Source: an uncultured Candidatus Binatia bacterium (lineage in GTDB: Bacteria > Desulfobacterota > Binatia > Bin18). From it: 64,000 bases of DNA. The translations under genes and the position numbers were made by a program. Under the pieces are notes generated by a model. The model ran no database searches. It saw only the letters and a list, made by a program, of their open reading frames with translations, and was not told where the DNA came from. This document shows, one piece after another, positions 1-64,000 of the stretch. Location of the stretch: NCBI GenBank assembly GCA_965214755.1, contig OZ243979.1, forward strand, positions 3,669,022 to 3,733,021, in the 5' to 3' direction. The first letter of the stretch is position 1; each line of letters starts with the position of its first letter.

Positions 1-566
1 TGGAAGGGATAGGCGACTTTGCGCCAGGAACGACACCGACCGTTTTTGCTCTTCCCTTAAAGCGTCAACCTGTCCTCCCCTCGGACGGCAAAGCTATGGA
101 TGCTGACTCTTTTGAGACCTTCGGCGTGCTCATCTGCTATGAGGGCGTTTTTCCTGACCTCGCGCGTCGCTTCGTTCATAATGGCGCGCGGCTGCTGATC
201 AATGTGACCAATGATGCCTGGTTTGGAGAGACCTCGGCCCCCTATCAACATCTAGCCATGGAGGCCATGCGGGCCGTCGAGAATCGCGTTCCCCTAGTGC
301 GGTCCGCAAATACCGGGATTTCAGCTATTGTGAATATCGATGGACAGATTCAGGCCCAAACAGCGCTCCTGGAGACCACCTTTATTGCCGACCAGCTTGT
401 CTGGCCCCACGTGACCTCTTTCTATACCCGGTACGGTGATTGGTTCGTGACGTTGTGCGTCGTCGGGACGCTCGTTATGCTAAGCTACGCAGGGATAATT
501 GTATTATTCGTAAAGCGAAACGGAGGAGGCGGAGATGCTGGCAGAAATCAGAGAAAAACTAAATGA
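1..566 (+). CDS. lnt: Apolipoprotein N-acyltransferase, C-terminal part (5' partial; CN-hydrolase domain)
   Basis: Reading frame is open from position 3 to the stop at 566; translation ...VLICYEGVFPDLARR...NVTNDAWFGETSAPYQHL... matches the Lnt nitrilase-like domain; a TM-like C-terminal stretch follows. Confidence 0.6.
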   Translation, partial: EGIGDFAPGTTPTVFALPLKRQPVLPSDGKAMDADSFETFGVLICYEGVFPDLARRFVHNGARLLINVTNDAWFGETSAPYQHLAMEAMRAVENRVPLVRSANTGISAIVNIDGQIQAQTALLETTFIADQLVWPHVTSFYTRYGDWFVTLCVVGTLVMLSYAGIIVLFVKRNGGGGDAGRNQRKTK

Positions 567-17657: not shown

Positions 17658-20600
17658 ATGGTGGAAATGAGCCTGACGAGTCTTTTGATCGCTAATCGAG
17701 GGGAAATCGCTATCCGTGTCGCCCGCGCGGCGGCTGAACTCGGCATACGGACCGTTGCTATTTTCTCTGAAGATGATGCGCAGTCACTCCATACCCAAAA
17801 GACGGATGAAGCTCTGCCGCTCCAAGGCCGGGGTGCCGCGGCCTACCTCGATATCGAGCAGATCCTTGCGCTGGCCGAACAGGCGGGCTGCGATGCAATT
17901 CATCCCGGCTATGGGTTTCTGAGCGAAAACGCAGAGTTCGCCAGGCGCTGTGCCGAGGCTGGGATGACGTTTGTCGGACCCCAGGTCGAAACGCTGGCGC
18001 TGTTTGGTGACAAAGGACAGGCTAGAACGCTGGCCGAAAGATGCGAGGTGCCGGTCCTGCCCGGGACGTCCGGTCCGACGAGCGTCGACGAGGCCCAAGA
18101 GTTCCTGACTTCCTTGGGTGCCGACGGAGCTGTGATGATTAAAGCCCTGGCTGGTGGGGGCGGCCGCGGTATGCGGGCGGTGCAGGCGGGCGATGACCTT
18201 GAAGCGGCCTACGCGCGGTGTCAGTCCGAAGCAACTGCAGCGTTTGGCAACGGCGATGTGTATGTCGAGCAACTCATTCCCCGCGCGCGGCATATTGAGG
18301 TCCAGGTCGTCGGTGACGGGTCTGGCGCGGTCAGTCATCTTGGTGAGCGTGAGTGCAGCATCCAGCGCCGCAACCAGAAGCTGGTGGAACTCGCTCCGTC
18401 GCCCGGGCTGTCGTCTGCGCTCAGAGCGCGCTTGACCACCGCTGCGGTTCGACTTGCCCGGGAGGTGTACTACGCCAGCCTGGGTACGTTCGAGTTCCTG
18501 GTTGATGCGGAACATGGGAGCGATAACGCGATATTTGCCTTTATTGAGGCCAATGCGCGGCTACAAGTCGAGCACACCGTCACCGAAGAAGTGACGGGCG
18601 TGGACTTGGTCAAGGCGCAATTACACCTGGCCGGCGGCAGTTCGCTCGCTGACCTGGGACTCACTCAGGAACGTATTCCCGAGCCACGCGGCTTTGCCAT
18701 GCAGGTTCGTATCAATATGGAGACCATAGCGTCTGACGGCGCGCCGCGCCCGTCGGGTGGGACCTTAGCGGCGTTTGAAGTCCCGTCAGGCCCCGGCCTG
18801 CGAACCGATACCTTCGGCTATGTCGGCTATACCACTAGTCCGAGCTTCGATTCCCTGCTGGCCAAATTGGTCGGTTCTTCTCCCTCATCGGATTTCTCCG
18901 ATGTCGTGACCAGGACCTACCGGGCGCTGTGTGAATTCAAGATTGAAGGCGTGGCAACGAATATCCCATTCTTACAGAGCCTCTTACGGCATCCGGCGTT
19001 TGTGAAGAACCAGCTCTATACCCGCTTTGTCGAAGACCACAGTGCGGAGCTGATTCGGGCGGATCATCATCAACGCTTCTTTTTTCACACCGACCAGACC
19101 CAGCCAGAAGCTCCAGCGCTGGCTGGTGTGAAAGTGGATAGTATTGATCCTTTGGCCGTGCTTGAGCACGGCAGGTCTGCGGACCCGACAGCTACCGTTG
19201 CCATGACTCCGGTCGGACATGCACCCGAGGTGAGCGGTCCTGACGGGACCGTCGCCGTTCCGGCTCCTCTTCAGGGAACTATTGTCAGCCTTGACGTGAG
19301 TGAAGGCGACGAGGTGCATGTCGGCCAGCAGCTCCTCATCATGGAGTCCATGAAAATGGAACACGTGATCTCGACGGAAACGAGCGGCATTATCCGCCAA
19401 CTGACCGTCAGTCAGGGAGACGCGGTTTTTGAAGGCCACCCGCTTGCCTTTATTGAAGAGATCGAGGTGGAGATGACGGCAGTCGAAAAAGCGGCCGAGC
19501 TTGACCTCGACTATATCCGTCCGGACCTGGCTGAGATCGTTGAGCGGCATGAACTGGGCATGGACGCCGCTCGGCCCGAGGCGGTTGCGCGGCGGCGGAA
19601 GACCGGCCAACGCACGGCGCGTGAGAACATCTACGATATCTGTGACCCCGATAGCTATGTCGAGTACGGGCCCATGGTCATTGCGGCCCAACGGCAGCGG
19701 CGCTCGTTGGACGATTTAATCCGCCGCACCCCGGCAGACGGCATGATCGCCGGGGTCGGGAGTGTCAATGGCGATCTGTTTGATGAAAAAGCGGCTCAGT
19801 GTATCGTCATCTCCTACGATTACACTGTGCTGGCCGGGACACAAGGCTTTAAGAATCACTATAAAAAAGATCGTATGTTTGAGCTGGCCGAGCGCTGGAA
19901 GCTGCCGGTTGTCTTCTTTGCCGAAGGCGGCGGTGGTCGTCCGGGTGACACCGACTGGTCAAGTCCCTCCGGACTGGACGTGCCGGCCTTTTACCTGTGG
20001 GGCAAGCTCAGCGGCATGGTGCCCCTGGTCGGCATTACCTCAGGCCGGTGCTTTGCCGGCAATGCCGTGATTCTGGGCTGCTGTGATGTGATTATCGCGA
20101 CCGCAGGATCGAATATCGGCATGGGTGGCCCGGCCATGATTGAGGGGGGCGGCCTTGGGGTCTTCCGGCCGGAAGAGGTCGGGCCGATGGAAGAACAGGT
20201 GCCGAACGGCGTAGTGGATATCCCGGTCACAGACGAAGCCGAAGCAGTCCAGGTGGCGAAGCAATATCTCTCCTATTTTCAAGGACCAGTCGCCGAGTGG
20301 AACTGTGCCGACCAACGCCTGTTGCGTTATATCGTGCCGGAGAACCGCTTGCGCATTTATGAAGTCCGCGATGTGATCGAGATCCTGGCCGACACCGGTT
20401 CTGTGCTGGAAATCCGCAAGCATTTTGGTATCGGCATGGTCACCTCCTTTGTGCGGATTGAAGGCCGCCCGGTTGGGGTGATTGCCAACAACCCCAAACA
20501 TCTGGGCGGAGCCATTGATTCTGATGCGGCGGACAAAGCCACGCGGTTCATGCAGTTGTGTGACGCGTTTGACATTCCCATTCTCATGCTGTGCGACACT

Positions 20601-21071
20601 CCGGGTAATATGGTTGGCCCCGAGTACGAAAAGACCGCTCTGGTGCGTCACTGCTGTCGCATGTTTGTGACCGGTGCGAGCCTGACCGTGCCGTTCTTCA
20701 CCATCGTGTTGCGAAAATCGTATGGACTCGGCGCGCAGGGGATGGCCGGGGGGAGCTTCAAAGCCCCGGCTTTTGCGGTGTCCTGGCCAACGGGTGAGTT
20801 CGGGGGCATGGGGCTGGAGGGCGCGGTGAAGCTGGGTTACCGCAAGGAGTTGGAGGCGGAGACGGCCCCGTATAAGCGCAAGGAACTCTACGAACAACTC
20901 GTTGCCAAGATGTATGAAAGCGGCAAGGCGCTCAGCACCGCAACTTATTTTGAAATTGATGACGTAATTGATCCTGCCGAGTCTCGACGCTGGATTATGG
21001 CCGCCCTGCGCTCCTCGCCTCCGCCCGTTCCCCGTACGGAGAAAAAACGGCCGTGTATTGATACGTGGTGA
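17658..21071 (+). CDS. Single-chain biotin-dependent acyl-CoA carboxylase (BC-BCCP-carboxyltransferase fusion, LCC-like)
   Basis: 1137 aa; N-terminal BC (LIANRGEIAIRVARAA...), central biotinyl motif IMESMKMEH, C-terminal carboxyltransferase domain (GGGRPGDTD...GITSGRCFAGNAV...). Confidence 0.8.
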   Translation: MVEMSLTSLLIANRGEIAIRVARAAAELGIRTVAIFSEDDAQSLHTQKTDEALPLQGRGAAAYLDIEQILALAEQAGCDAIHPGYGFLSENAEFARRCAEAGMTFVGPQVETLALFGDKGQARTLAERCEVPVLPGTSGPTSVDEAQEFLTSLGADGAVMIKALAGGGGRGMRAVQAGDDLEAAYARCQSEATAAFGNGDVYVEQLIPRARHIEVQVVGDGSGAVSHLGERECSIQRRNQKLVELAPSPGLSSALRARLTTAAVRLAREVYYASLGTFEFLVDAEHGSDNAIFAFIEANARLQVEHTVTEEVTGVDLVKAQLHLAGGSSLADLGLTQERIPEPRGFAMQVRINMETIASDGAPRPSGGTLAAFEVPSGPGLRTDTFGYVGYTTSPSFDSLLAKLVGSSPSSDFSDVVTRTYRALCEFKIEGVATNIPFLQSLLRHPAFVKNQLYTRFVEDHSAELIRADHHQRFFFHTDQTQPEAPALAGVKVDSIDPLAVLEHGRSADPTATVAMTPVGHAPEVSGPDGTVAVPAPLQGTIVSLDVSEGDEVHVGQQLLIMESMKMEHVISTETSGIIRQLTVSQGDAVFEGHPLAFIEEIEVEMTAVEKAAELDLDYIRPDLAEIVERHELGMDAARPEAVARRRKTGQRTARENIYDICDPDSYVEYGPMVIAAQRQRRSLDDLIRRTPADGMIAGVGSVNGDLFDEKAAQCIVISYDYTVLAGTQGFKNHYKKDRMFELAERWKLPVVFFAEGGGGRPGDTDWSSPSGLDVPAFYLWGKLSGMVPLVGITSGRCFAGNAVILGCCDVIIATAGSNIGMGGPAMIEGGGLGVFRPEEVGPMEEQVPNGVVDIPVTDEAEAVQVAKQYLSYFQGPVAEWNCADQRLLRYIVPENRLRIYEVRDVIEILADTGSVLEIRKHFGIGMVTSFVRIEGRPVGVIANNPKHLGGAIDSDAADKATRFMQLCDAFDIPILMLCDTPGNMVGPEYEKTALVRHCCRMFVTGASLTVPFFTIVLRKSYGLGAQGMAGGSFKAPAFAVSWPTGEFGGMGLEGAVKLGYRKELEAETAPYKRKELYEQLVAKMYESGKALSTATYFEIDDVIDPAESRRWIMAALRSSPPPVPRTEKKRPCIDTW

Positions 21072-21213: not shown

Positions 21214-21996
21214 CTACCGTCCCACAAAATTTCCAGGTCGCCGCTCAGCTACGGCTTTAATGCCCTCTTTGTGATCTTCCGTTTGCTGGAGTCGGTGCTG
21301 CTCTCGAAACTCGTGATCCGTCGCCGCTTTGATCGCGGCGGCAATGCCGTCTCGCATGGTTGCCCGCACGGACTGCACGGCCAGGGGTGCATTCTCGGCA
21401 ATTTCCTTGGCGAGTTCCAGCGCCGCAGAGCGGATGTTCTCCTTTGTGGTCAGGACCTCGCCCAAGCCCCAGCTATAGGCCTCCTCGCCTCCAATCCTCC
21501 TGCCGGTTTGAAAGATCAGGTTTGCGCGTGGATCACCGATCAGACGGGGTAGGGTATAGGTCAGGCCGAAGCCCGGATGAAAGCCGAGTTTGACAAAGTT
21601 TGCCGCAAATCGTGTTTCCGGGCAGAGCACGCGGAAATCGGGTACCAGTGCGAGTCCAAAGCCGCCCCCAATGGCCGCTCCCTGGATCGCGCCAACAACC
21701 GGCTTTTTGCAGGAAAACAGGCGCACAGCCTGGGCGTAGAGCGGATTGCCCGTTTCAACATCGCGCAGATCACGCTCTGCCTGGCCACTGTGAAAATTTG
21801 CCCCGGCACAAAAATGTTTACCGTCTGCCGCGAGGACGATGGTTCGACAATCCGTTTCTGTATCCAAAGCTTCAAACGCATCAGCCAGGGACTGAATGAG
21901 AGCCGTATCAAAGAAATTGTTTGGCGGCCGTTGAATCTCGGCGGTCGCCACATGATCGGTCAAGCTTACTTCAACATCTCCGTAGCGTGTCTCCAT
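21214..21996 (-). CDS. Enoyl-CoA hydratase/isomerase (crotonase family)
   Basis: IVLAADGKHFCAGANF... crotonase fold. Confidence 0.8.
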   Translation of the reverse strand: METRYGDVEVSLTDHVATAEIQRPPNNFFDTALIQSLADAFEALDTETDCRTIVLAADGKHFCAGANFHSGQAERDLRDVETGNPLYAQAVRLFSCKKPVVGAIQGAAIGGGFGLALVPDFRVLCPETRFAANFVKLGFHPGFGLTYTLPRLIGDPRANLIFQTGRRIGGEEAYSWGLGEVLTTKENIRSAALELAKEIAENAPLAVQSVRATMRDGIAAAIKAATDHEFREQHRLQQTEDHKEGIKAVAERRPGNFVGR

Positions 21997-47206: not shown

Positions 47207-47875
47207 ATGCGTCATTTCTATTGGATAGGATTGGTTCTTTTTGGATTTTTCCTATTCCCTGATTTTCTTTTTGCCCAATCCTCTACGCTCCAATATACAC
47301 AAGACGATATGACTGATGAGATTACCGGTGCGAGTCTTGAGATTGCTCATGCTCACGGATTCTTTGGCTGTACTTGTGATACTGAAGAAACGAAGGCTGT
47401 TCGCCAGCTAGCAGAAGCCGCACAAATATCGCGATATTTTTTGGATCGTATGCCAAAAGGGATCGGCATTACGTTTGTGTACAGACCAAAAGAATTTCTG
47501 GTTCATTTAGAGGAATTCATTGATGTTTCTATGCGGATTGATTCTCAACCAGTGACAGAAGCTTCATGGAAATGGGCAGATAACGCCGCGTTTCTTGTGT
47601 CAGGAACGGATATTTTTGGAGAAACTGTCTCTGGACAACTACGGTCTAAGATAAGCTTTGCTATTCGTAACCGTTTTGGATTCACCCACCCTAGTTTAGA
47701 AGCCCTTTCTTTGTTTCTTCGAGCACCAAGTACTCGTGATTTATTAAAAACTATAAGTACTGCACAACAAGTGAGAATAAAAATAGAAGGGGGTAAGGCA
47801 CTTCGATTTGATTTAGTCAAAGCACGGAAAGACATCCAGGAGTTCAAGAAGATTTGTTATAATTATAGATTCTAG
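47207..47875 (+). CDS. Hypothetical secreted protein (signal peptide), in an AT-rich island
   Basis: MRHFYWIGLVLFGFFLFPDFLFAQSS signal peptide; ~42% GC versus ~60% in flanking DNA. Confidence 0.5.
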   Translation: MRHFYWIGLVLFGFFLFPDFLFAQSSTLQYTQDDMTDEITGASLEIAHAHGFFGCTCDTEETKAVRQLAEAAQISRYFLDRMPKGIGITFVYRPKEFLVHLEEFIDVSMRIDSQPVTEASWKWADNAAFLVSGTDIFGETVSGQLRSKISFAIRNRFGFTHPSLEALSLFLRAPSTRDLLKTISTAQQVRIKIEGGKALRFDLVKARKDIQEFKKICYNYRF

Positions 47876-47891
47876 AACTGGAGTATAGCTC

Positions 47892-48269
47892 ATGAAAAGA
47901 GACATGGATTTGGTCAGGAACCTCCTTCTTGCTATTGAGAGTGCGGAAGGGTCATTGACGAATACAACGCTCAGTATTGCACTTAAAAAGTTATACATGG
48001 ACGATTCTCAAATTCCGTCTTACCAGACAATCGTTGGTCACATCGAGATCATGGAAGAAGCAGAGCTTGTGTCTGTGAAACTGGTTCCGCATATGGGTGG
48101 CCCGCCTGCCTTCCTGGGGTTGAGGATGACCTGGCATGGACAAGATTTTCTAGCCAATGCCCGTAACTCTTCCATTTGGGAAAAGGCACGGCCAAAGATG
48201 GAGTCGCTAAGCTTTGACTTGGTAAAACAACTCTTGAGCCTCCTGGTGAAAGAGGCAATGCTGCCCTAA
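47892..48269 (+). CDS. DUF2513-like small protein, in the AT-rich island
   Basis: MKRDMDLVRNLLLAIESAEG... N-terminus characteristic of DUF2513 phage-associated proteins (from memory). Confidence 0.4.
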   Translation: MKRDMDLVRNLLLAIESAEGSLTNTTLSIALKKLYMDDSQIPSYQTIVGHIEIMEEAELVSVKLVPHMGGPPAFLGLRMTWHGQDFLANARNSSIWEKARPKMESLSFDLVKQLLSLLVKEAMLP

Positions 48270-48488: not shown

Positions 48489-49367
48489 ATGTCCGAACAG
48501 CAAGCAGACATTTCAGCCCAGCGCGTGACCTATCGTGTCGAAGAAGAACTCACCATTATCGGCGACGCCTGGGGAAACGCCGACAATCCGCCCGTCCTGC
48601 TCTTGCACGGCGGCGGCCAAACGCGCTTTGCCTGGGGCAATACGGCCCGGACCCTGGCCGAGCAAGGCTGGTATGCAGTATCCCTGGACCTGCGTGGTCA
48701 TGGAGAGAGCGGCTGGGCTCCGGACGGCAACTATAATATCGAGAAGTTTTCCGCGGACCTCCACGTCGTGTTGGGTCATTTCGACCGGCGTCCGGTCCTG
48801 GTGGGGGCCTCCCTCGGCGGCATTACCTCAATGCTGACCGAAGGGGAAGCGCCGCAGCCGGTGAGTGCCGGGGTGGTGCTGGTTGATGTCACGCCGCGGG
48901 TGGAGCAGAAAGGCGTAGACCGCATTCGAGCCTTCATGACCGCCCGGCCCGATGGCTTTGAGAGCCTGGAAGAAGTTGCCGATACCATCGCTGCGTATAT
49001 TCCTCACCGTCCTCGCCCCAAGGATGTGAGCGGTCTGGCCAAAAACCTGCGTAAGGGAGAGGACGGCCGCTATCGCTGGCACTGGGACCCGAACCTCATG
49101 CACCCGGCCCGCTTTCGGCGCGACCCCGAACGGCTCATGGCCGCGGCCCGCGGGCTGCGGCGGGTGCCGACCCTGCTGGTCCGGGGGAAGCTCAGCGATG
49201 TGATCAGCGACGAAACGACCCAGGAATTTCTCGACGCCGTGCCGCACGCCAAATATATAGACGTGTCTGATGCCGGCCATATGGTCGCCGGAGATAAAAA
49301 CGATATCTTCAGCCAAGCGGTGATCGAGTTCCTGACTGATATCAAGACAACCGCGCCGGCCGCCTAG
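48489..49367 (+). CDS. Alpha/beta-fold hydrolase
   Basis: VLLLHGGGQTRFAW...GASLGG nucleophile elbow. Confidence 0.7.
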   Translation: MSEQQADISAQRVTYRVEEELTIIGDAWGNADNPPVLLLHGGGQTRFAWGNTARTLAEQGWYAVSLDLRGHGESGWAPDGNYNIEKFSADLHVVLGHFDRRPVLVGASLGGITSMLTEGEAPQPVSAGVVLVDVTPRVEQKGVDRIRAFMTARPDGFESLEEVADTIAAYIPHRPRPKDVSGLAKNLRKGEDGRYRWHWDPNLMHPARFRRDPERLMAAARGLRRVPTLLVRGKLSDVISDETTQEFLDAVPHAKYIDVSDAGHMVAGDKNDIFSQAVIEFLTDIKTTAPAA

Positions 49368-49626
49368 GCAAATTGCGATTCCGTGTAGCCGCCCGCTGGA
49401 TGCCGGATTACGTCCGGCATGACGGGAGCCCCCTGCACGGCTGGAGCTTATCGTGCAACGCTCTAGGCAAGCTCTTCGGCAGAGCCGGGTCTACCGCCCT
49501 CGGCCCATGGTGTAAAACTCGGCGTTGGGTCGCATAAGTGCTTGCCAAAGAATCTTGGCTTTCACCATGGAGCCGGCTAGGCTAGGGGCTCGCCCGTGAG
49601 CCCTTGGGAGGCGAAAGGAGGACCCC

Positions 49627-50049
49627 ATGGAAAACAAGCCGGAAAAAACCGCACTGCAAGACGATTACTCCTACCGGGCGGTTGACGCCTATAACACCCG
49701 GATATACCTCCTCCCGGCTTTGGCCGACCCCGAGCGCCGCGCCGCGCTTATTGCCGAGCACCGCGCCCGCCCGCTGTATGAGGCCGCCCAGCCCGGCAAG
49801 CCGGCACCCATGGACAGCCCGGCCCTGGCCCGTCTGCTGGACCGCCTGCGCGTTGTCCCCCAACAGGACAAGCACGTCATTATCGAAACGCGCCCTTGGG
49901 AAGAATATCGTATTGGGGTTCTGCCCGGCGTCCGGGGCAAGGCGGTTGAAATAACGGACGAAGCCTATCCCACCCGCGAAGACGCCGAGCATGCGATTTT
50001 CCTCAAACGCCTCAACGCCTTACTCGACGCGTACGGGATTACCGACTGA
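49627..50049 (+). CDS. N,N-dimethylformamidase small (alpha) subunit-like protein
   Basis: 140 aa; C-terminal ...RPWEEYRIGVLPGV...EDAEHAIFLKRL parallels the Paracoccus DmfA1 C-terminus (...WDAYRIAT...EEAMHAVFLRRI); located immediately upstream of the large subunit. Confidence 0.55.
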   Translation: MENKPEKTALQDDYSYRAVDAYNTRIYLLPALADPERRAALIAEHRARPLYEAAQPGKPAPMDSPALARLLDRLRVVPQQDKHVIIETRPWEEYRIGVLPGVRGKAVEITDEAYPTREDAEHAIFLKRLNALLDAYGITD

Positions 50050-50073
50050 GCCGCCATTTGTCAGGAGGGACGT

Positions 50074-52443
50074 ATGACGACACTGGGTATTACCGGCTAT
50101 AGCGACCGTATTTCCGTGCAGCCCGGACAGACTGTTCGATTCTATGTGCACTCCGAACGCAACCAAGCCTACCGGGCCGATATCGTGCGGCTCATCCATG
50201 GCGACACCAATCCTGACGGTCCCGGCTATAAGGAAGAAGAGATTGCGAGCTGTGGTGAATATCCGGGGCGTCACCAAGCCGTCCATGCCGGCTCGTATAT
50301 TTGTGTGCCACACGATACGCGGTTCGATATCAGCAGCTTTACCCTGATGGCCCTGGTTTTTCCCACGACGCCAACCAAAGGGGTGCAGGGCATTGTCACG
50401 AAATGGTCCGGGCCGGAAGAGACGGGCTACGGCCTGTTTATTGACGAGCAGAGCGAGCTGGCCGTGCGCATAGGCCGGGGAAAGGGCGTGGTCGAACAGC
50501 TTTCCTCAGGCAAACCGCTGTTCCGTAAGGTGTGGTATCTGGTGGCCGCGAGCTTTGACGCGGCCAGCGGTCATATCAGCCTGGTGCAAGAACCGATTGT
50601 GACCAGCACCAACACGGGACACGGGATGCGTTTTATCCATCCTATCGAAGAAACCCGTGCCGCAGTTGAGCGGTCTGGCTCTCCCCAGGCACCCGCCGCG
50701 AATGACTGTCCGGTGCTGATTGCCGCGGCAACGACCCAGGCGCATTCAGGGCGGTCTGTCTGGGGCGGACACTTCAGTCATGTGCACTCGCCCATCGAGA
50801 TTCCAGAACACGAAGCCAAGTTCAACGGACGGATCGAACGCCCGACTATTGCCAATCGCGTGCTCAATCGGGCGGAAATCGAACGTGTCCTGCACGGTCC
50901 TCGGCCCCTCCCGACCGAGCTGCGACCGGCGCTGGTTGCAGCCTGGGATTTTGCGGCCAATATCGTTCCAAACGCGTCCTCAACCCAGGTGCTGGACGAC
51001 TCCCTGCACCGTCTGCACGGCCACTGCATTAATATGCCGTCACGCGGCATGCCCGGTCACAACTGGACTGCGGATCAGATGAGTTTTACTGCCGCGCCAC
51101 AGGAGTACGGGGCGATTCATTTTCATGACGACGCCATAGACGACGCGCGCTGGGAGGTTGATTTCGAGTTTCCTATTCCCGACGACCTGAAAAGTGGGGT
51201 GTACGCCGCCCGGCTGCGTTTGGGCGGGCAGGACACACCCGGCAATGAAGACTATATCCCCTTCTTTGTGCGTCCTCCGGCCGGTCGCCCTACCGCCAGG
51301 ATCGCAGTAATTATTCCGACGGCCAGCTATATGGCCTATGCCAACGAAAATCTCAGCGCGGACTCACAAGTCGCCCAACTCCTGACCGGCCGCGTGCCGC
51401 TGATGCAGCCTGGGGACCTCTTACTCCAAGAGAAAGACGGCTACGGCTACGGCACCTACACCGTTCATAGTGACGGCTGGGGGGTGCATATCTCCTCGCG
51501 GCTGCGGCCCATTCTCAATATGCGGCCCAAATACACCCACGTGCTGTCGCCGTCGGTCTGGCAACTGAACGCCGACCTCCATCTGACCGACTGGCTTGAA
51601 GCCATGGCGTTTGACTTTGACGTGCATACGGATGAAGACCTGCAACGCGAAGGGGTCGAACTGCTGAAGCAATACCGCGTCGTGCTGACCTGTCATCATC
51701 CCGAGTATTGCTCGGAAGAAATGCTGGACGCCTACGAAGCCTACCAGCAGCAAGGCGGCCGCTGGCTGTATCTGGCGGCCAACGGCTTTTACTGGTGTAC
51801 GGTGTTTCATCCTGATAATCCCGCTCTCATCGAAGTCCGTAAGGGCGACAACGGCACGCGGGCCTGGACCATTAGCCCAGGGGAATACTGCAATGCCTTC
51901 GATGGAAAACACGGCGGCCTGTGGCGGGTACGGGGTCGGAATATGAGTAAGCTGACCGGTGTGAGTTTTACCTCGTTCGGTCTGACGGCCTCCAGCTATT
52001 ACCGCCGAGCCCCGGACAGCTTCCGACCGGAATGTGCCTGGATGTTCGCAGGCATAGGCGAAGACGAGCCGATTGGAAATTTCGGTCTGGTCGGGGGTGG
52101 AGCCGCCGGGCTGGAGCTCGACCGCTACGACCTGGAACTCGGGACGCCCCACAACGCCTTTCTGCTCGCCCACTCCGAGGGACATAACGATATCTTTGTG
52201 ACGGTCTCAGAGGAATCGACGTTCAATGCGCGTGGCTATTTTGCGGCTGGTGGTACCGGCGACCAGAATCCCTATATCCGGGCGGACATTGTCTACTTCA
52301 AAACGCCAAATGACGGGGCGGTGTTCTCGGCTAGCTCCATGGCCTGGTGTGGGAGTCTTTCGCACAACAACTATGACAATAATGTGTCGCGTCTGACCGC
52401 CAATGTCATTCGCGGCTTTCTCCAAGACGGACCGTTGCCGTAG
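50074..52443 (+). CDS. N,N-dimethylformamidase large (beta) subunit-like amidohydrolase
   Basis: 789 aa; many blocks shared with DMFase large subunit: RLIHGDTNPDGPGYKEE, QEYGAIHFHDDAIDDARWEVDFEF, IPFFVRPP, ASYMAYANE, LNMRPK, ADLHLTDWL, GLVGGGAAGLELDRYDLELGTP, VRADIVYF, SLSHNNYDNNVSRLTANV. Confidence 0.7.
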   Translation: MTTLGITGYSDRISVQPGQTVRFYVHSERNQAYRADIVRLIHGDTNPDGPGYKEEEIASCGEYPGRHQAVHAGSYICVPHDTRFDISSFTLMALVFPTTPTKGVQGIVTKWSGPEETGYGLFIDEQSELAVRIGRGKGVVEQLSSGKPLFRKVWYLVAASFDAASGHISLVQEPIVTSTNTGHGMRFIHPIEETRAAVERSGSPQAPAANDCPVLIAAATTQAHSGRSVWGGHFSHVHSPIEIPEHEAKFNGRIERPTIANRVLNRAEIERVLHGPRPLPTELRPALVAAWDFAANIVPNASSTQVLDDSLHRLHGHCINMPSRGMPGHNWTADQMSFTAAPQEYGAIHFHDDAIDDARWEVDFEFPIPDDLKSGVYAARLRLGGQDTPGNEDYIPFFVRPPAGRPTARIAVIIPTASYMAYANENLSADSQVAQLLTGRVPLMQPGDLLLQEKDGYGYGTYTVHSDGWGVHISSRLRPILNMRPKYTHVLSPSVWQLNADLHLTDWLEAMAFDFDVHTDEDLQREGVELLKQYRVVLTCHHPEYCSEEMLDAYEAYQQQGGRWLYLAANGFYWCTVFHPDNPALIEVRKGDNGTRAWTISPGEYCNAFDGKHGGLWRVRGRNMSKLTGVSFTSFGLTASSYYRRAPDSFRPECAWMFAGIGEDEPIGNFGLVGGGAAGLELDRYDLELGTPHNAFLLAHSEGHNDIFVTVSEESTFNARGYFAAGGTGDQNPYIRADIVYFKTPNDGAVFSASSMAWCGSLSHNNYDNNVSRLTANVIRGFLQDGPLP

Positions 52444-52459: not shown

Positions 52460-52759
52460 CTATTGAGATGAAAGACGTTCTGTAATGCGTGTGTAGACAT
52501 CGCGCCGATGAATAACTCCGTAAATCAACACTTCTCTTCGGAGGATGCGAAAGACGACCCGATAGTCTCCAACCCGGAGCTTCCAATAGCCCTTGAGTGT
52601 TCGTTTCAGAGGTTCCCCATACTGCTGTGGTGCTGTCCCCAGTCTGGTCTGAATGGCGCGGGCGATACGTTTGCGAAGATTCCGATTGATCCGAGGGATA
52701 TCTTCAGAGTGGACAGAGGGATGGTAGAGCAACCGATAGGGCGGAGCGGTATCAGTCAT
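52460..52759 (-). CDS. RelE/ParE-family type II toxin
   Basis: 99 aa; ...KGYWKLRVGDYRVVFRILRREVLIYGVIHRRDVY. Confidence 0.7.
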   Translation of the reverse strand: MTDTAPPYRLLYHPSVHSEDIPRINRNLRKRIARAIQTRLGTAPQQYGEPLKRTLKGYWKLRVGDYRVVFRILRREVLIYGVIHRRDVYTRITERLSSQ

Positions 52760-52982
52760 CCCAGGTCGCCTGATGCGTCAGGGCCTGAGTTCGTTGAAAG
52801 GTGCGTGCCCGCTCTTCAGCAAACCGCCCAAGCTCTTCGTCTTCCTGAGCGTCCAGCGCTTCTCGAACGAGGTCGCGGATTTTAAGGGAGAGGGAGATGT
52901 GCTCTTTCTTGGCGAGCTTCTGGACCCGCTCATACAAGGGCTTTTCCAAAACAACGTTGATACGTGGATTCCTGGTTGGCAT
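52752..52982 (-). CDS. Ribbon-helix-helix antitoxin (cognate of the RelE/ParE toxin)
   Basis: MPTRNPRINVVLEKPLYERVQKLAKKEHISLSLKIRDLVREALD; overlaps the toxin start by 8 nt. Confidence 0.6.
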   Translation of the reverse strand: MPTRNPRINVVLEKPLYERVQKLAKKEHISLSLKIRDLVREALDAQEDEELGRFAEERARTFQRTQALTHQATWDD

Positions 52983-53055
52983 ACGTTTGTCTCCTGAGTG
53001 GTTGCAGTAGTGTATCATTTGTGGAGAACCATACTCAAGCGGCGGTAGTCTTCAG

Positions 53056-54669: not shown

Positions 54670-55686
54670 TTATGCGGAAAACGCTTTGACTATCGAGCGC
54701 CAGCGGGCATCGTTCACGCCCGGGCGGTCGGGATGATAGAAGGCCACCCGGTCGAGCAGGCCGTCGTATTTTTCTTTGAGCATGGCCGGAACTTCAGCTG
54801 GGGAACCGGTCACCGCGTACGCGTCCAGCATCTCGTCGGTCACGTCCCTGGCCATGGCCTGCCACTCGCCCTTGGCCGCTTTGGCGTTCAGGCGGAGACA
54901 CACGTCGCCCCAGCCGTGGACGTCCAGCACGGGTTTATACGTTCGGGTAGAGGCATAGAACGCAATCTGCATACGCACCTTTTCGCGCATGGCGTCCATT
55001 TCTTTTTGCGTGTCACCCATAATCACAAAAGACGAGCTTGAGACTATGATGTCTTTTCGGCTACGATCGGATTTCTGCGCTCCCTCTTCAATCTGGGGGA
55101 GCACCCGTTCGCGCAGAAATTTCGCCGAATGAAACGGGTGGGCGTGAAAGCCGTCGCACAACTCGCCCGCCAAACGGCAGATATACGGGTTCACCCCGGC
55201 GATATAGATGGGAATCTGCGGATGGTCGATTTTTCCTGGCGAAAAGGCCGGGGTCATCAGCGTATGCTGATAAAACTCGCCCTGAAAGTCCAACGGCGCG
55301 CCGTTCTGCCAGCAGTCCCAAATCGCTCGCAGCGCCAGAACAATCTCGCGCAGCTTCGGACCCGGCGATTCCCATTTTACACTATACCGCCGCTGGTTAT
55401 GGCCCTTCACCTGGGTGCCGAGTCCCAGAACGAAGCGCCCGTTTGAGGCACGTTGCAGGTCCCAGGCCGTATAGGCCAGCGACATCGGGCTGCGCGGAAA
55501 CGCCAGGGCAATCGCCGTGCCGAGGGTGAGCTTGGTGGTGACGGTCGCCGAGACGGCGAGCGAAAGAAAGGGGTCGTGCTGGTTCTCCATGCTCCACACC
55601 CCGTCAAAACCCATGTCTTCGGCAGTGCGCGCAATCGCAATCGCTTCGTCGAGCGAGCGGGCGGTCAGTAAGCTGTCGAGTTTCAT
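54670..55686 (-). CDS. LLM-class (luciferase-like) flavin/F420-dependent oxidoreductase
   Basis: MKLDSLLTARSLDEAIAIARTAEDMGFDGVWSMENQHDPF. Confidence 0.75.
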   Translation of the reverse strand: MKLDSLLTARSLDEAIAIARTAEDMGFDGVWSMENQHDPFLSLAVSATVTTKLTLGTAIALAFPRSPMSLAYTAWDLQRASNGRFVLGLGTQVKGHNQRRYSVKWESPGPKLREIVLALRAIWDCWQNGAPLDFQGEFYQHTLMTPAFSPGKIDHPQIPIYIAGVNPYICRLAGELCDGFHAHPFHSAKFLRERVLPQIEEGAQKSDRSRKDIIVSSSSFVIMGDTQKEMDAMREKVRMQIAFYASTRTYKPVLDVHGWGDVCLRLNAKAAKGEWQAMARDVTDEMLDAYAVTGSPAEVPAMLKEKYDGLLDRVAFYHPDRPGVNDARWRSIVKAFSA

Positions 55687-57168: not shown

Positions 57169-57954
57169 ATGTCAGAACCAGTCCTCATGGTTGAGAAAAC
57201 CGATGGGATCGCAACCCTGACCCTGAACCGCCCACGGGCGATGAATGCCCTGTCTCGTGAACTCCGGCTCGAAATTGTCAGAGCCTTTGCAGCACTGCAA
57301 AGCGACCCGGCGACTCATGTCGTGATCCTGACCGGTGCCGGTCGGGCATTCTGTGCAGGCATGGACCTCAAAGAGCTGAGCCGGACGAGCGAACCCCTAC
57401 AAGAACCGCAACCAACGCCGGGTAGCATGGATGTGGTGCGGGTCATGGAGGCGTTTGACCGCCCCATTATTGGTGCGATCAACGGTTTTGCCATCACTGG
57501 CGGGTTTGAGTTGGCCCTGGCCTGCGATGTCCTGATCGCGTCCAGCGATGCGCGTTTTGCGGATACGCACGCCCGGATGGGGGTCATGCCGGGGTGGGGC
57601 CTGAGCCAGAAACTCTCTCGCGTGATTGGCATTTACCGGGCGCGTGAATTGTCTCTGACCGGAAACTATCTGTCTGCCCAGCAAGCCGAAGCCTGGGGGC
57701 TGGTGAACCGCGTTGTTGCGCCCGACGACTTGCTGTCGACCTGTCGCTCGTTGGCCACAGATATGCTGTCGTGTCTGCCTGACATGCTGCGCAATATGAA
57801 GCGCGTGATTAACGAAGGCTACGCCCGGACGCTCAGCGACGGGCTCCAACTCGAATCAACCGCCTGGCGTGAACAGGTCCGTGGCGTCACTCCAGAGGCG
57901 ATTGCCACTAGGGTCGAAAGGGTGAAACAATGGGGGCGAACACAGACATCCTGA
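57169..57954 (+). CDS. Enoyl-CoA hydratase/isomerase (crotonase family)
   Basis: VVILTGAGRAFCAGMDLKE. Confidence 0.8.
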   Translation: MSEPVLMVEKTDGIATLTLNRPRAMNALSRELRLEIVRAFAALQSDPATHVVILTGAGRAFCAGMDLKELSRTSEPLQEPQPTPGSMDVVRVMEAFDRPIIGAINGFAITGGFELALACDVLIASSDARFADTHARMGVMPGWGLSQKLSRVIGIYRARELSLTGNYLSAQQAEAWGLVNRVVAPDDLLSTCRSLATDMLSCLPDMLRNMKRVINEGYARTLSDGLQLESTAWREQVRGVTPEAIATRVERVKQWGRTQTS

Positions 57955-58133: not shown

Positions 58134-59009
58134 CTATACCCGCCCAATAACCGTGTCCCCAATCTCTTTGACATAATCTGTAATTTCTGTCTCAGTAGAG
58201 CTGAGTGTGAACAGGGCGTCTCCTTTGGGCGGGAAGAGCAGAATCAAACGATCCACGCCCAGGTCCGCATAACGTTTGGCCGTGTCGAGATCGATCCGTC
58301 CAACCGGAGTCACGCTGATTTCGAGCGTGCCTAAGCTACTCGGGCGTTCATTTTGTTCTTCTGCAGCTTTCAGGCCATCGAAGCATTTTTTGGTTCCGTC
58401 CACATCGAGGGCAAAGCCGTACCAGCCGTTGCCATGGGTCACGGAACGCTGAAACGCCTGGGGGGTCATACCGCCAAACACGACCGGCGGACCGGGCTGC
58501 TGCACCGGCTTGGGAAATGCCTTGATCCCACTAAAAGAGGCAAACTGGCCCTGGTAGGACGGGTCGTCCTGACTCCAAATAGTCCGCATGGCATCAACGT
58601 AATCAAGCGTGCGCGGCCCTTTATGGCTGAACGGCGCTCCGAGGGCGTCAAATTCCGGCTTGAGATAGCCAATGCCAACACCAAAGATCAGGCGTCCGCC
58701 TGACAGAACATCCAGGCTGGCCATCTCTTTTGCCAGCACCAGCGGATTCCGTTGCGGCAAAATAATAATGCCGGTTCCCATGCGGATGGTTTGGGTCTGG
58801 CCGGCCAGAAAGGCAAAGGCGATATTGGGGTCGAGCATGGGGTAGGTTGGCGGTAACGGCGAAGGCGGCTCCTGCGGGTCCGGCAACACAATGTGTTCGC
58901 CCGCCCAGACGGATTCAAACCCAGCGGCCTCGGCTGCCTGCGCCACCCGCGCTGATGCGTCCGGCGTACTGCACGGTCCCATATTGATGCCAAAGAGTCC
59001 AAGTTGCAT
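58134..59009 (-). CDS. LLM-class flavin/F420-dependent oxidoreductase
   Basis: MQLGLFGINMGPCSTPDASARVAQAAEAAGFESVWAGEHIVLP. Confidence 0.75.
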   Translation of the reverse strand: MQLGLFGINMGPCSTPDASARVAQAAEAAGFESVWAGEHIVLPDPQEPPSPLPPTYPMLDPNIAFAFLAGQTQTIRMGTGIIILPQRNPLVLAKEMASLDVLSGGRLIFGVGIGYLKPEFDALGAPFSHKGPRTLDYVDAMRTIWSQDDPSYQGQFASFSGIKAFPKPVQQPGPPVVFGGMTPQAFQRSVTHGNGWYGFALDVDGTKKCFDGLKAAEEQNERPSSLGTLEISVTPVGRIDLDTAKRYADLGVDRLILLFPPKGDALFTLSSTETEITDYVKEIGDTVIGRV

Positions 59010-59970: not shown

Positions 59971-60615
59971 ATGAATGAGAAGTTTCTGAAACGATTTGAA
60001 GAACTCCAGGAGCAATCGGATTCGTTGCCGTTTGAACAAGGTGGATATTCCCGGTACGTATCGGAAGGAAGGTGGCAAAGATGGGCCACAAGTTGTCAAA
60101 ATCTCATCAGGGCCGTGTTCGGGGAAGAATCTCCTCACTATAACAACTTTGTAGAAGCACTAAAGGGATGTCGCGGAGGTGAGGGCGAGATAAATGCCCT
60201 CCAAGGAGTCTTCCAAAGCGCCAAAGAAGATTTTGAAGGCGGCTACGTTTTCAATGTGGACCTCAGAATTTCTGGAGAGGTCTTCGGCGATTTCGTCGTT
60301 CTGGCTAAGCAGTCTCTTACTGATGGTCACAAAGATGTGGCGGCGGTTTTGGCATCTGCCGCGTTGGAGGACGCGTTGAAACGTTACGCAAACGCTGAAG
60401 GTCTGAATATCGACAACCAATCGATGTCAGAAGTCATTAATGCACTCAAATCAAAAAGGCTAGTGTCAGGAGCCCAGAAATCCCTATTGGACGCCATGCC
60501 ACGTATAAGAAATTTTGCAATGCACGCCAATTGGGAAAAAATATCAGAGCCGGACGTTAACGGGGTTATCGGTTTTGTTGAGCAGTTCCTCCTAACAAAA
60601 TTCAGCCAGGACTAA
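59971..60615 (+). CDS. HEPN-domain protein (DUF4145-like), in an AT-rich island
   Basis: 214 aa; C-terminal RNFAMHANWEKIS contains an Rx4H HEPN motif; ~45% GC. Confidence 0.4.
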   Translation: MNEKFLKRFEELQEQSDSLPFEQGGYSRYVSEGRWQRWATSCQNLIRAVFGEESPHYNNFVEALKGCRGGEGEINALQGVFQSAKEDFEGGYVFNVDLRISGEVFGDFVVLAKQSLTDGHKDVAAVLASAALEDALKRYANAEGLNIDNQSMSEVINALKSKRLVSGAQKSLLDAMPRIRNFAMHANWEKISEPDVNGVIGFVEQFLLTKFSQD

Positions 60616-60617
60616 CT

Positions 60618-61199
60618 ATGCCTGACTCCATACTCAAACGGTGGAACATTACTGTCGAAGAACTTACGCAAGTAGTCGACCAGAACCCCAGTCTCAGAGG
60701 AATGATCCTCGGCTACCTTGCCGAGTTGAAGCTAGAGCAGCTCTGGCTCGGGCGCGAAGGGATTTCTCAGGTATCAAAGCATGATGACCATAACAGGAAA
60801 AAGAAAGGCGACCGTGTCGTTACGTACAAAGGTAAGGAATTCATTTTTGAATCGAAATCTCTTCAGACAAACACCATACGGAAAACGGATGAGGGTTGGG
60901 TTGGCAAAGCCCAGGTAGATGCGAGTGACCTGCGCGCGGTCATTCTCCCTAATGGAACTGAAGTACACACAACCTGTTTACTTCGGGGAGAATTTCATAT
61001 TCTGGCTGTCAATATTTTCGCCTTTGAAGAGAAGTGGAGGTTTGTCTTTGCAAAAAACGATGAGTTGCCCTCATCAAGGTATAGAGGCTACGACGAGTAT
61101 CAACGAGACCATTTACTTGCCACCCTTGTAACGGTTCGTTGGCCCCCCAAGCCTCCGTTTTATGAAGAACCGTTTACCCTGATGAACGAGTTGCTGTAG
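60618..61199 (+). CDS. Hypothetical protein with a PD-(D/E)xK-like motif (candidate restriction endonuclease)
   Basis: 193 aa; [17 protein letters not shown] (D...ExK); starts 3 nt after the HEPN gene; converges on the MTase gene. Confidence 0.35.
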
Positions 61200-61959
61200 C
61201 GAATCGCATCTGCGACGCTTTCGTGTTCCTTGGTATCTTCACAAAGATCAGAAAGTATGAATGATTTTTTCGCGCATGTACCTGATTGATTACTCTACTC
61301 ATCCCCGGTTTGTTAGGGCGAACTACGATAAACAAGTCTTTGCAGAAGAAACCGATTTCGGCGAATGAGTTTATAATCTCGACGTGGGTAAGATTTTGTC
61401 TGTTTGCACTGACTTCGTCTTGACATTTGACGATATATACACCTCTCTCTTTCAGAATGCGGCGCGCCTCCTTCCCTCCCTCATTGTACATCTCTAAAAC
61501 TGCCGCGTGCCATTTCGCGCCATTAGGTTTGGGCGCTTCATCACCGTTGGAGTAATGGTCTCTGAACGCAGTGTGTGTCCCATCGCCCGCCTTTATGGCG
61601 TTACTATTCCTGTAGAATCCTTCCATGTATGGCGGGTCGAAAACGACAACATCAAATGAGCTATCTTCATAGGGAAGCTTCCGGCAGTCTATGCCATCCG
61701 CGATATCGGACGGGAAAAATCGATATTTACTTGTATCTACATTTCTCCAGAAAATCCCTTTGCCATATGTTACGTCGGCAATGCGTGCGCCATCTGCTAC
61801 GTGAAGTTGCAGCACTTTCGGAAAGATATCAGCATTATTACCAATATACGCAGAAAATATGAGGTCTGAGGTTGCCACGCCCTCAGGACTTTTTCTTCCT
61901 GACGGGGTGCGGTGTTCCTCAGTCAGGTCAAAGAGCATTTTAACTTGTTCCGTACCCAT
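61174..61959 (-). CDS. DNA methyltransferase (N6-adenine or N4-cytosine, DPPY motif)
   Basis: VVFDPPY catalytic motif; upstream [14 protein letters not shown]-binding-like block; 261 aa. Confidence 0.65.
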
Positions 61960-62261: not shown

Positions 62262-63134
62262 CTACCTCTCCGGCGCGAATGCCTCAATCGCCCGCTCGTC
62301 CGGCACCATGCCACCCTTGGGGCTCAGTGGCATGATACATACGTGTGACGCTCCCGCCTCATAATAGGCAGCAATCCGCTCGCGAATTTTTGCCTCGTCC
62401 CCCCAGGCAATAACCGCGTCTACGATCTGGTCACTGCCGCCGTTTGCCATGTCGGCGTCAGTAAAACCGACCTCTTTGAAGCGTTGGACGTAGTGATCGA
62501 TTTGGAGATAGGTCTGCATGTAACTGCGGGCGGCCGCACGGGCCGTATCCGCATTCGACTCCAGCATGACGCCCAACTCGGCACACAGCCACGGCTCCGG
62601 TCCAAGGGTCTTGCGGGTTGCCGCAATCTGCTCAAGCACGGTGAAATAGGTATGCGTCCCCTGGGTCTGCGTTGCGGAAAGCGCGAGCATCTTGGGCATC
62701 ATCCCGGCCAGCACCACGGGCGGGTCGTTTTGCGGGGCTGGTGCGGCGTACGGTGCGGCTTTCATCTTGGTCAGATATTCGCGCGTGAAGCTGAGGGGCT
62801 TGCCATACGGAATACCGCGCCGGGCGTTACCCTGCGCATTACTCACGCCCAGGCCGAGCACAAAGCGGTCGCCGTATAGCTCGGCGAGCGTCCGGGTCGC
62901 ATTGGCAATCGCAATCGGCTCATACGCATAGGTCACCACAATACCGGTGGCGATGACCAGACGCTCGGTTTGGCTCAGCAAATACGAGGCAAACGAAAAG
63001 CTTTCGCGGCCCAGGGTCTCGGGAAACCACAGGGCGCTATAGCCGAGCTGTTCGACTCTGCGGGCGAGCTGGCCGGTCTGGGCGCCGGTGAGGCCGTCCA
63101 GAAAGGTAAAAACGCCGGGAGGTCGGAGGTTCAT
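62262..63134 (-). CDS. LLM-class flavin/F420-dependent oxidoreductase
   Basis: LGYSALWFPETLGRESFSFASYLL...; LLM TIM-barrel pattern. Confidence 0.7.
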   Translation of the reverse strand: MNLRPPGVFTFLDGLTGAQTGQLARRVEQLGYSALWFPETLGRESFSFASYLLSQTERLVIATGIVVTYAYEPIAIANATRTLAELYGDRFVLGLGVSNAQGNARRGIPYGKPLSFTREYLTKMKAAPYAAPAPQNDPPVVLAGMMPKMLALSATQTQGTHTYFTVLEQIAATRKTLGPEPWLCAELGVMLESNADTARAAARSYMQTYLQIDHYVQRFKEVGFTDADMANGGSDQIVDAVIAWGDEAKIRERIAAYYEAGASHVCIMPLSPKGGMVPDERAIEAFAPER

Positions 63135-63150: not shown

Positions 63151-64000
63151 CTAGCGAAAGGCCGGAATGACCTTGCTGGTAAACAGCTCTAAATGAGGCT
63201 GAATCCAGCTTGCCGGCAGGCCCGGCGGCAGCGTCCACGAATAATAATGCGTCAGCGGAGTCTCTAAGGCATAGTCGCGAATCATCTGAATGCAGGTGTC
63301 AACATCTACCACCTGGAACAGACCCGATTCACGTAATGCCGCGGTATCCGGCACTTTTGGAAACAGGGGCATGCCGGCCTTTTCCGACCACTCAGCATAG
63401 GCATTGACCTGATAGCGGACGTGTTCGGCTGCTTCGTTCCAGGTCTTGTCCGGGTCTTCGGACGGAATCAGCCAAAAATAGCCACCTGCGAGACGAATAT
63501 CCGTGGTGGATTTCCCGACTTTTTCCAAGGCGGTCACATAGCGTTCATACGCCTCTTTCAGCGGACCGACGCCGATATACCCGTCGCCATACTTTGCCGC
63601 CCGCCGGAGTGCCGGCGGGGTGAAACCGCCGACCCAAATCGGTGGTCGTGGTTGCTGAATCGGCTCCGGGGTGAGCCTGGCTTTGGTCACCGTGTAGTAT
63701 TTCCCCTCAAACGTCAGGGTCTCGCCCTCCCACAGGCGACGAATGATTTCGAGGCCCTCATTCGTGCGCGCGCCGCGTTCTTTGCTCGAAATCGCGAAGC
63801 TCTCAAACTCCTCGACTTTATACCCAACGCCCACACCCAGCTCGAACCGGCCACCCGAAATCACGTCCACCGTGGCCGCATCTTCGGCCAACCGGACCGG
63901 ATTATGAAACGGCAGGAGCACCACGCTCGTCCCGATATGAATTTTCCTGGTCCGCGAGGCAATCGCGGCGGCAATCGGCATCAGCGCAGGAGAATAGCCA
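63151..64000 (-). CDS. LLM-class flavin/F420-dependent oxidoreductase (5' partial, runs off the window)
   Basis: ...IHIGTSVVLLPFHNPVRLAEDAATVDVISGGRFELGVGVGY; N-terminus beyond position 64000. Confidence 0.65.
   Translation of the reverse strand, partial: GYSPALMPIAAAIASRTRKIHIGTSVVLLPFHNPVRLAEDAATVDVISGGRFELGVGVGYKVEEFESFAISSKERGARTNEGLEIIRRLWEGETLTFEGKYYTVTKARLTPEPIQQPRPPIWVGGFTPPALRRAAKYGDGYIGVGPLKEAYERYVTALEKVGKSTTDIRLAGGYFWLIPSEDPDKTWNEAAEHVRYQVNAYAEWSEKAGMPLFPKVPDTAALRESGLFQVVDVDTCIQMIRDYALETPLTHYYSWTLPPGLPASWIQPHLELFTSKVIPAFR

Follow-up and report, generated by a model that had tools for sequence, protein, structure and literature searches.

Two adjacent genes in a 64,000-nucleotide stretch of contig OZ243979.1 (hereafter the window; assembly GCA_965214755.1, an uncultured Candidatus Binatia bacterium) almost certainly encode the core of a two-subunit iron amidohydrolase of the N,N-dimethylformamidase (DMFase) family. 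The upstream gene encodes a small, DmfA1-type alpha subunit, and the downstream gene encodes a large, DmfA2-type catalytic beta subunit. The locus as a whole is best explained, with rather more confidence than doubt, as encoding an alpha2beta2-type mononuclear-iron amidohydrolase acting on a small N-alkylated formamide or short amide; taken by itself, the assignment of the substrate class to small formamides or short amides is evenly balanced. From these comparisons we infer the iron content, oligomeric state, and substrate of the enzyme. Degradation of N,N-dimethylformamide (DMF) by the pair is plausible, but DMF, a synthetic solvent, is unlikely to be the physiological substrate for which the enzyme was selected.

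An earlier note on this DNA, made from the sequence alone, had proposed a two-subunit DMFase-like enzyme with the capacity to hydrolyze DMF or related formamides. The first part of that proposal is borne out by both subunits and by an intact iron site, and the two open reading frames (ORFs) appear in the ORF list at exactly the positions given in Table 1. The second part is an inference that does not follow from the family assignment. The DMFase-family pair in the Binatota is a new member of the family, in a phylum in which the family was not previously discussed.

Large and small subunits of the Binatia enzyme

The large ORF was matched in a phmmer search of Protein Data Bank (PDB) chains by 6lvb_A, the large subunit of the DMFase of Paracoccus sp. 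DMF (E = 1.2e-186), in an alignment that ran from end to end (residues 3-789 against 3-760). Pairwise alignment with the plasmid pAMI2 proteins of Paracoccus aminophilus, which the earlier note had suggested as a check, gave 44.9% identity over 752 aligned columns for the large subunit and 36.8% for the small one, and the similarity of the large subunit was not confined to short segments. Pfam models recognized the C-terminal DMFA2_C domain (PF20254, 2.6e-92) and Laminin_G_3, a LamG/pentraxin-type domain, whereas NCBIfam contained no model matching either subunit. An AlphaFold model of the large subunit (predicted local distance difference test score [pLDDT], 69.7; predicted template modeling score [pTM], 0.73) superposed best on 6lvb_A (TM 0.82/0.85) and second best on N-acetyl-(R)-beta-phenylalanine acylase (TM 0.73/0.79).

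In the Paracoccus DMFase, Fe(III) is held by Y399, Y440, and E521; H519, N547, and E657 are essential by mutagenesis; and F693, which is contributed by the neighboring large subunit, constricts the pocket (PMC7686228). Every residue for which mutagenesis or coordination has established an essential role in that enzyme is kept in the Binatia large subunit, and Y422, Y462, H542, E544, and E681 were invariant in an alignment of 41 relatives. The Tyr/Tyr/Glu iron ligands, which the earlier note had singled out for checking, are thus conserved as Y422, Y462, and E544. As a test of DMF activity, however, this conservation does not discriminate, because the acylase (8huy) has the same residues; it indicates an active hydrolase and not a particular substrate. 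At the column of N570, Asp replaces Asn in a number of relatives (P0071, P0080, P0090, P0092, P0111, P0116, and P0120) and likewise in L031, L039, L046, L073, and the paralogue on the P. aminophilus chromid pAMI5; this substitution may reflect a change in catalytic detail or in substrate. Every relative with an alpha subunit has F or Y at the position of F717, but the acylase does not keep an aromatic residue there. Together with the presence of a small subunit, this aromatic residue groups the Binatia enzyme with the small-pocket, alpha-associated enzymes. As judged from the alignment, F717 does not amount to proof of DMF activity, since the pAMI5 paralogue also has F at this position.

The small ORF matched 6lvb_B, the small-subunit chain of the same PDB entry, at E = 1.1e-8 (residues 34-130 against 27-125). 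Its AlphaFold (AF2) model, built on 41 homologs, was of good confidence (pLDDT, 89.1; pTM, 0.80), and a Foldseek search of the PDB with this model returned only the three DMFase small-subunit chains 6lvb_B, 6lvv_B, and 6lvd_B (E = 2.4e-6 to 5.4e-5; TM 0.68/0.75 over 135 columns), with the next match at E = 0.34. The small ORF had been described in the earlier note as matching the C-terminal half of the small subunit. The match is more extensive than that, with about 70% of the chain covered in the sequence alignment and nearly the whole chain in the fold comparison. A local Pfam scan found no match in the small ORF itself, although its orthologs in public data carry a precomputed match to PF26354 (DMF_alpha). 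Proteins with this domain are often labeled "inner-membrane translocator" or "branched-chain amino acid permease" (L093:1293-2948; P0159, P0161, P0223, P0229, and P0320). These names are a probable case of annotation transfer from putative permease-DMF_alpha fusions, and a candidate source is a 551-amino-acid permease encoded just upstream of the large-subunit gene on an Agrobacterium pAt plasmid.

The two genes are separated by 24 nucleotides, and each is preceded by a Shine-Dalgarno sequence (Table 1). Where related loci have sufficient flanking sequence, a small gene almost always lies beside the large one, as it does in all 21 of the Binatia loci. Within the Binatia, ratios of nonsynonymous to synonymous substitution (dN/dS) were 0.05 to 0.11 for the small gene and 0.04 to 0.08 for the large gene, indicating strong purifying selection. 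Because the pairing is conserved across loci and both genes are under such selection, the sequence comparisons indicate that the pair is a real, functional, co-inherited two-gene unit. The two genes most likely form one transcription unit. A scan for promoter and terminator consensus sequences between positions 48200 and 53100 found no excess over the shuffled expectation, and such a scan is uninformative for this phylum.

Table 1. Positions of the gene pair, its signals and catalytic codons, and its immediate neighbors in the window; large-subunit domains are given in residues
Feature	Position	Strand	Details
Small (alpha, DmfA1-type, PF26354 DMF_alpha) subunit gene	49627..50049	+	140 aa, ATG start
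Large (beta, DmfA2-type) catalytic subunit gene	50074..52443	+	789 aa, ATG start
Shine-Dalgarno AAGGAGG	49615..49621	+	5 nt before small-subunit ATG; sequence reading and script check
Shine-Dalgarno AGGAGG	50063..50068	+	5 nt before large-subunit ATG; sequence reading and script check
Domain I of large subunit	residues ~1-70 and 356-406		by alignment to parDMFase
Domain II of large subunit (pentraxin/LamG)	residues ~71-355		by alignment to parDMFase
Domain III of large subunit (catalytic)	residues ~407-789		by alignment to parDMFase
Y422 codon (equivalent of Fe ligand Y399)	51337..51339	+	alignment; invariant in 41 homologs
Y462 codon (equivalent of Fe ligand Y440)	51457..51459	+	alignment; invariant in 41 homologs
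H542-P-E544 motif (equivalents of essential H519 and Fe ligand E521)	51697..51705	+	alignment
N570 codon (equivalent of N547; essential, oxyanion stabilization)	51781..51783	+	alignment
E681 codon (equivalent of E657; essential, proposed catalytic base)	52114..52116	+	alignment
F717 codon (equivalent of F693; pocket aromatic)	52222..52224	+	alignment
Alpha/beta-fold hydrolase gene	48489..49367	+	Pfam Abhydrolase_1/6; 259 bp upstream of the pair
ParE/RelE-type toxin and ribbon-helix-helix (RHH) antitoxin	52460-53018	-	just downstream of the large gene

Relatives of the pair and their gene arrangements

DMFase homologs had been called uncommon in the earlier note. For the large subunit this does not hold, as more than 3154 clusters at 90% identity were found at E <= 1e-50. 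For the small subunit it holds in part: when 1.84 billion representatives were searched exhaustively with a profile, 343 clusters at 50% identity were found at E <= 1e-3 and 111 at E <= 1e-10. In an earlier survey, K03418 was present in 4.5% of complete genomes, and the small subunit was recognized in only 41 genomes or metagenome-assembled genomes (MAGs) (bioRxiv 10.1101/2021.03.18.435917).

The closest relatives of the large protein (92 to 97% identity) are encoded on the chromosomes of uncultured Candidatus Binatia MAGs, to which the window shows 90 to 94% DNA identity over 14 to 17 kb. In at least 21 species-level Binatia MAGs, the pair lies on the chromosome in conserved synteny and has been inherited vertically. 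In a neighbor-joining tree (C-terminal 540 columns; acylase as outgroup; 100 bootstraps), the Binatia large subunits formed one clade that was sister to a group containing Aminobacter niigataensis MD1 plasmid pcAMD1, Roseobacter weihaiensis, and several MAGs. These in turn fell within a 31-taxon clade that also contained SAR11, Pseudothioglobus, Arenicellales, and others. All three groupings received a bootstrap value of 100.

Members of the 31-taxon clade from outside the Binatia carry two DMF_alpha-type genes alongside the large gene, encoding an alpha of about 140 amino acids and a shorter, divergent alpha' of about 107 to 141 amino acids whose gene directly follows the large gene. The gene orders found were alpha-beta-alpha' and beta-alpha'-alpha (L002 and L022-L090; for example, L085:6756-10056 and L088:7560-14229), and the carriers of both alpha and alpha' are relatives at 58 to 70% identity (SAR11, Pseudothioglobus, Arenicellales, Rhodobiaceae, Aminobacter MD1, and others). 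A positional script placed alpha' in 49 of the 55 non-Binatia loci with adequate flanking sequence; inspection by eye located it in 3 of the 6 exceptions as well, bringing the count to about 52 of 55. In the 21 Binatia loci, as in pAMI2, the arrangement is alpha-beta alone. A hidden Markov model of alpha' had no match in the 64-kb window and gave only weak matches, to alpha itself, in the 21 Binatia loci. On this tree, the most parsimonious account would be that alpha' was lost once in the Binatia. The alpha' protein may be an undescribed third subunit; to our knowledge, a three-component alpha/beta/alpha' enzyme has not been described as such.

In many of the marine members, the three genes lie in a co-oriented cluster (some 7 kb centered on the large gene in L031, L035, L042, L046, L052, L060, L064, L073-L076, L081, and L082) with genes for a rhodopsin, a flotillin, a 129-amino-acid protein, an alpha/beta hydrolase, a metallo-beta-lactamase, and a Na+/solute symporter, the last often directly before the large gene. 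This cluster corresponds to the flotillin-associated rhodopsin (FArhodopsin) cluster, the authors of which mention a dimethylformamidase gene in it (PMC10308929). DmfA-annotated proteins from Alpha- and Gammaproteobacteria have also been detected in Pacific metaproteomes (PMC9477243). Searches of the window for counterparts of the rhodopsin, flotillin, SSF symporter, metallo-beta-lactamase, and LuxR genes linked to the marine clusters found none. The alpha/beta hydrolase of the window was considered as a partner shared with the marine clusters and was rejected, as the resemblance (21 to 24% identity, E ~1e-5) is at the level of the superfamily only.

Substrate of the enzyme

The mechanism of the Binatia enzyme is, to judge from the conserved residues, very probably that of the Paracoccus enzyme. 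It would be a heteromeric, alpha2beta2-type nonheme enzyme in which the C-terminal domain of beta carries a two-Tyr, one-carboxylate Fe(III) site formed by Y422, Y462, and E544. The same domain carries H542, N570, and E681. An Fe-bound water would attack the carbonyl of a small amide, with N570 stabilizing the oxyanion and E681 serving as the general base. F717 of the partner beta subunit would narrow the pocket, whereas the 140-amino-acid alpha subunit would stabilize the beta dimer and contribute to the substrate channel. The most likely reaction would convert a small N-alkylated formamide or other short amide to an acid (formate) and an amine. More distant two-subunit relatives adjoin genes for AmiS/UreI-type short-amide transporters or Liv/Urt-type ABC permeases, neighbors that fit small-amide substrates for the family as a whole.

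Several observations weigh against this assignment. The identity of the large subunit to the characterized enzyme is only about 45%, and the pAMI5 two-subunit paralogue, which is about as distant, is reported to have no link to DMF use (PMC4543880). The pAMI2 DmfA2, which represents the characterized Paracoccus enzyme, falls outside the 31-taxon clade in the tree, and no characterized member of that clade was found in the literature. Relative to the Paracoccus enzyme, the Binatia large subunit has a 5-residue insertion right after F717, and the residue preceding the catalytic Glu is Leu instead of Tyr; given these two changes, the Binatia pocket may differ from that of Paracoccus. The monomer model of the large subunit is of low confidence exactly at the active-site loops and does not allow the geometry of the pocket to be assessed. 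The 64-kb window contains no genes for dimethylamine, methylamine, or formate metabolism and neither an amide transporter nor a DmfR-type regulator.

An unlikely alternative is that the fold and the iron chemistry are the same but that the enzyme acts on another class of amide, such as an N-acyl amine, an N-acyl amino acid, or a natural metabolite of the host or habitat, so that DMFase would be only a family name. The acylase 8huy shares every catalytic residue, which demonstrates that the scaffold accepts quite different amides, and the insertion in the F717 loop and the Tyr-to-Leu change beside the catalytic base might give the pocket another shape. In the Binatia, moreover, the pair has two conserved neighbors, an alpha/beta hydrolase and an amidase-signature amidase. 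These two neighbors are generic, however, and are tied to the pair only within the Binatia. The Binatia enzyme also keeps F717 and a small subunit, of which the acylase has neither, and the model of its large subunit scores higher against DMFase (TM 0.82) than against the acylase (TM 0.73).

It is improbable that the pair is a physiological N,N-dimethylformamidase serving growth on DMF or its detoxification, with dimethylamine and formate feeding methylotrophy. Such a role would agree with an architecture of two subunits and a set of catalytic residues that match those of the Paracoccus enzyme and with the prediction that Binatota are methylotrophs with methylamine dehydrogenase and formate dehydrogenase (PMC8262859). 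The Binatia clade, however, is separate from all characterized DMFases. On pAMI5, P. aminophilus JCM 7686 has a further dmfA1-dmfA2-like locus, with genes 34% and 40% identical to those of pAMI2, that is reported to be unlinked to DMF utilization, whereas loss of pAMI2 abolishes growth on DMF (PMC4543880); a relative at about 40% identity thus confers no DMF use. In known DMF degraders, the genes are plasmid borne and accompanied by insertion sequence (IS) elements and the DMF-responsive LuxR activator DmfR (PMC4543880). The pair described here is instead chromosomal and vertically inherited in the Binatia, with no regulator and no dimethylamine genes nearby, a pattern that fits poorly with recent selection by a synthetic solvent.

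That the small ORF arose by chance, or that the pair is a decaying, functionless remnant, would draw only on the modest E value (1e-8) of the small ORF against a PDB chain and is refuted, as a very remote prospect, by intact ORFs with ribosome-binding sites, dN/dS values of 0.04 to 0.11, a confident and specific predicted fold, and a pairing kept in more than 70 loci.

It is tentatively proposed, at somewhat less than even confidence, that the Binatia pair and its abundant marine relatives form an ancient natural lineage acting on a natural small amide, such as N-methylformamide or a different N-alkyl formamide, and not on DMF and that the two-gene form in the Binatia is a secondarily simplified alpha/beta/alpha' enzyme. 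The natural substrate may come from methylated-amine turnover or from host metabolites. The DMFase family is widespread even though DMF is synthetic, which makes its natural role the question of interest. Relatives of the Binatia pair belong to the core of the rhodopsin clusters of SAR11 and Pseudothioglobus and have been seen in ocean metaproteomes, and the Binatia pair, being chromosomal, vertically inherited, and strongly constrained, offers a compact two-gene handle for finding the natural substrate of the clade. For annotation, the lesson is that conservation of the iron site alone does not justify the name dimethylformamidase.

Genomic context and comparison with known systems

About 20 species-level Binatia genomes share a gene order that begins with a xanthine/uracil permease, an amidase, an alpha/beta hydrolase, and the small and large subunits and continues with a variable toxin-antitoxin slot, a Tag glycosylase, a Zn-alcohol dehydrogenase, a luciferase-like oxidoreductase, and a major facilitator superfamily transporter. 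This block adjoins housekeeping genes for ScpA/B, an aminoacyl-tRNA synthetase, and a pseudouridine synthase. No plasmid or IS context was found around the pair, which is surrounded instead by this housekeeping synteny of Binatia chromosomes, and no LuxR-type gene was found near it. Beyond the Binatia, the small and large genes are the only ones common to the loci, and the other neighbors reflect lineage-specific synteny.

The flanks of the pair are as the earlier note had described them, with an alpha/beta hydrolase gene upstream and a toxin-antitoxin pair on the opposite strand downstream (Table 1). The alpha/beta hydrolase precedes the pair in 20 of the 21 Binatia loci, and its ortholog is absent from non-Binatia loci. 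It is a conserved neighbor within the Binatia only, and any functional tie to the pair is putative. The second conserved Binatia neighbor is the amidase-signature amidase; searches of the PDB with the hydrolase and the amidase returned generic relatives only. The toxin-antitoxin slot is occupied by ParE and RHH genes in the window and in L003, L004, L008, and L017 and by a BrnA-like antitoxin gene in L083, and many of the remaining Binatia genomes have nothing there.

Between the amidase and the alpha/beta hydrolase lies a low-GC two-gene insert (47207-48269; GC content of 51.7% at 46 to 48 kb versus about 58 to 60% in the surroundings) that encodes a 222-amino-acid protein without a family match and a DUF2513 protein; among the Binatia loci, only L006 shares it. 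A second low-GC segment (59971-61959; 46.9% over 60 to 62 kb) encodes a DUF4145 protein, a 193-amino-acid protein without a family match, and, on the opposite strand, an N6/N4 DNA methylase and is probably a restriction-modification or mobile islet. Elsewhere in the window, four luciferase-like (LLM/F420-type) oxidoreductase genes occur within 10 kb (54670-55686, 58134-59009, 62262-63134, and 63151-63981), and there are two enoyl-CoA hydratase genes (21214-21996 and 57169-57954). Positions 17658-21071 encode one 1137-amino-acid chain that combines a biotin carboxylase, a biotinyl carrier domain, and a carboxyltransferase and is a single-chain acyl-CoA carboxylase.

Among structurally characterized proteins, the acylase (8huy, 8i59, and 8i5a) shares the fold of the large subunit (TM 0.73/0.79) and its iron-site and catalytic residues (Tyr/Tyr/Glu and His/Asn/Glu), with 40% identity over the C-terminal 540 columns. 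It differs in that the deposited entries contain one chain type, without a small subunit, and in that the F693-equivalent aromatic residue is absent. The FArhodopsin-cluster genes of SAR11, Pseudothioglobus, Arenicellales, and others share membership of the 31-taxon clade, 58 to 65% identity, and the catalytic residues with the Binatia genes; they differ by having the three-gene form within a rhodopsin/flotillin cluster, none of whose partners occur in the window. The closest non-Binatia relatives are those of A. niigataensis MD1 pcAMD1 and its marine sisters (R. weihaiensis H9 and Rhodobiaceae and Gammaproteobacteria MAGs), at 64% identity for the large subunit and 63% for the small subunit. 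In this group, alpha' directly follows the large gene and is often accompanied by a LuxR-type regulator, whereas the window has neither. The paper on Aminobacter MD1 makes no mention of its DMFase-like genes.

The pAMI5 locus resembles the Binatia pair in its two subunits, its similar distance from the characterized enzyme, its iron ligands and pocket Phe, and the Leu before the catalytic Glu. It differs by adjoining an AmiS/UreI transporter gene, by having Asp at the N547 position, and by lying outside the clade of the Binatia enzyme. The characterized Paracoccus DmfA1/DmfA2 system (6lvb; pAMI2; EC 3.5.1.56) differs by lying on a plasmid with IS elements and DmfR, in contrast to the chromosomal, vertically inherited Binatia pair; by its place in the tree, the Binatia genes forming a separate, well-supported clade at 45% (large) and 37% (small) identity; and by lacking the 5-residue F-loop insertion and having Tyr where the Binatia enzyme has Leu before the catalytic Glu. 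The two systems have in common the order of a small gene followed by a large gene, a three-domain large subunit, the two-Tyr, one-Glu iron ligands, the essential His, Asn, and Glu, the pocket Phe, and a small-subunit fold that is otherwise unique.

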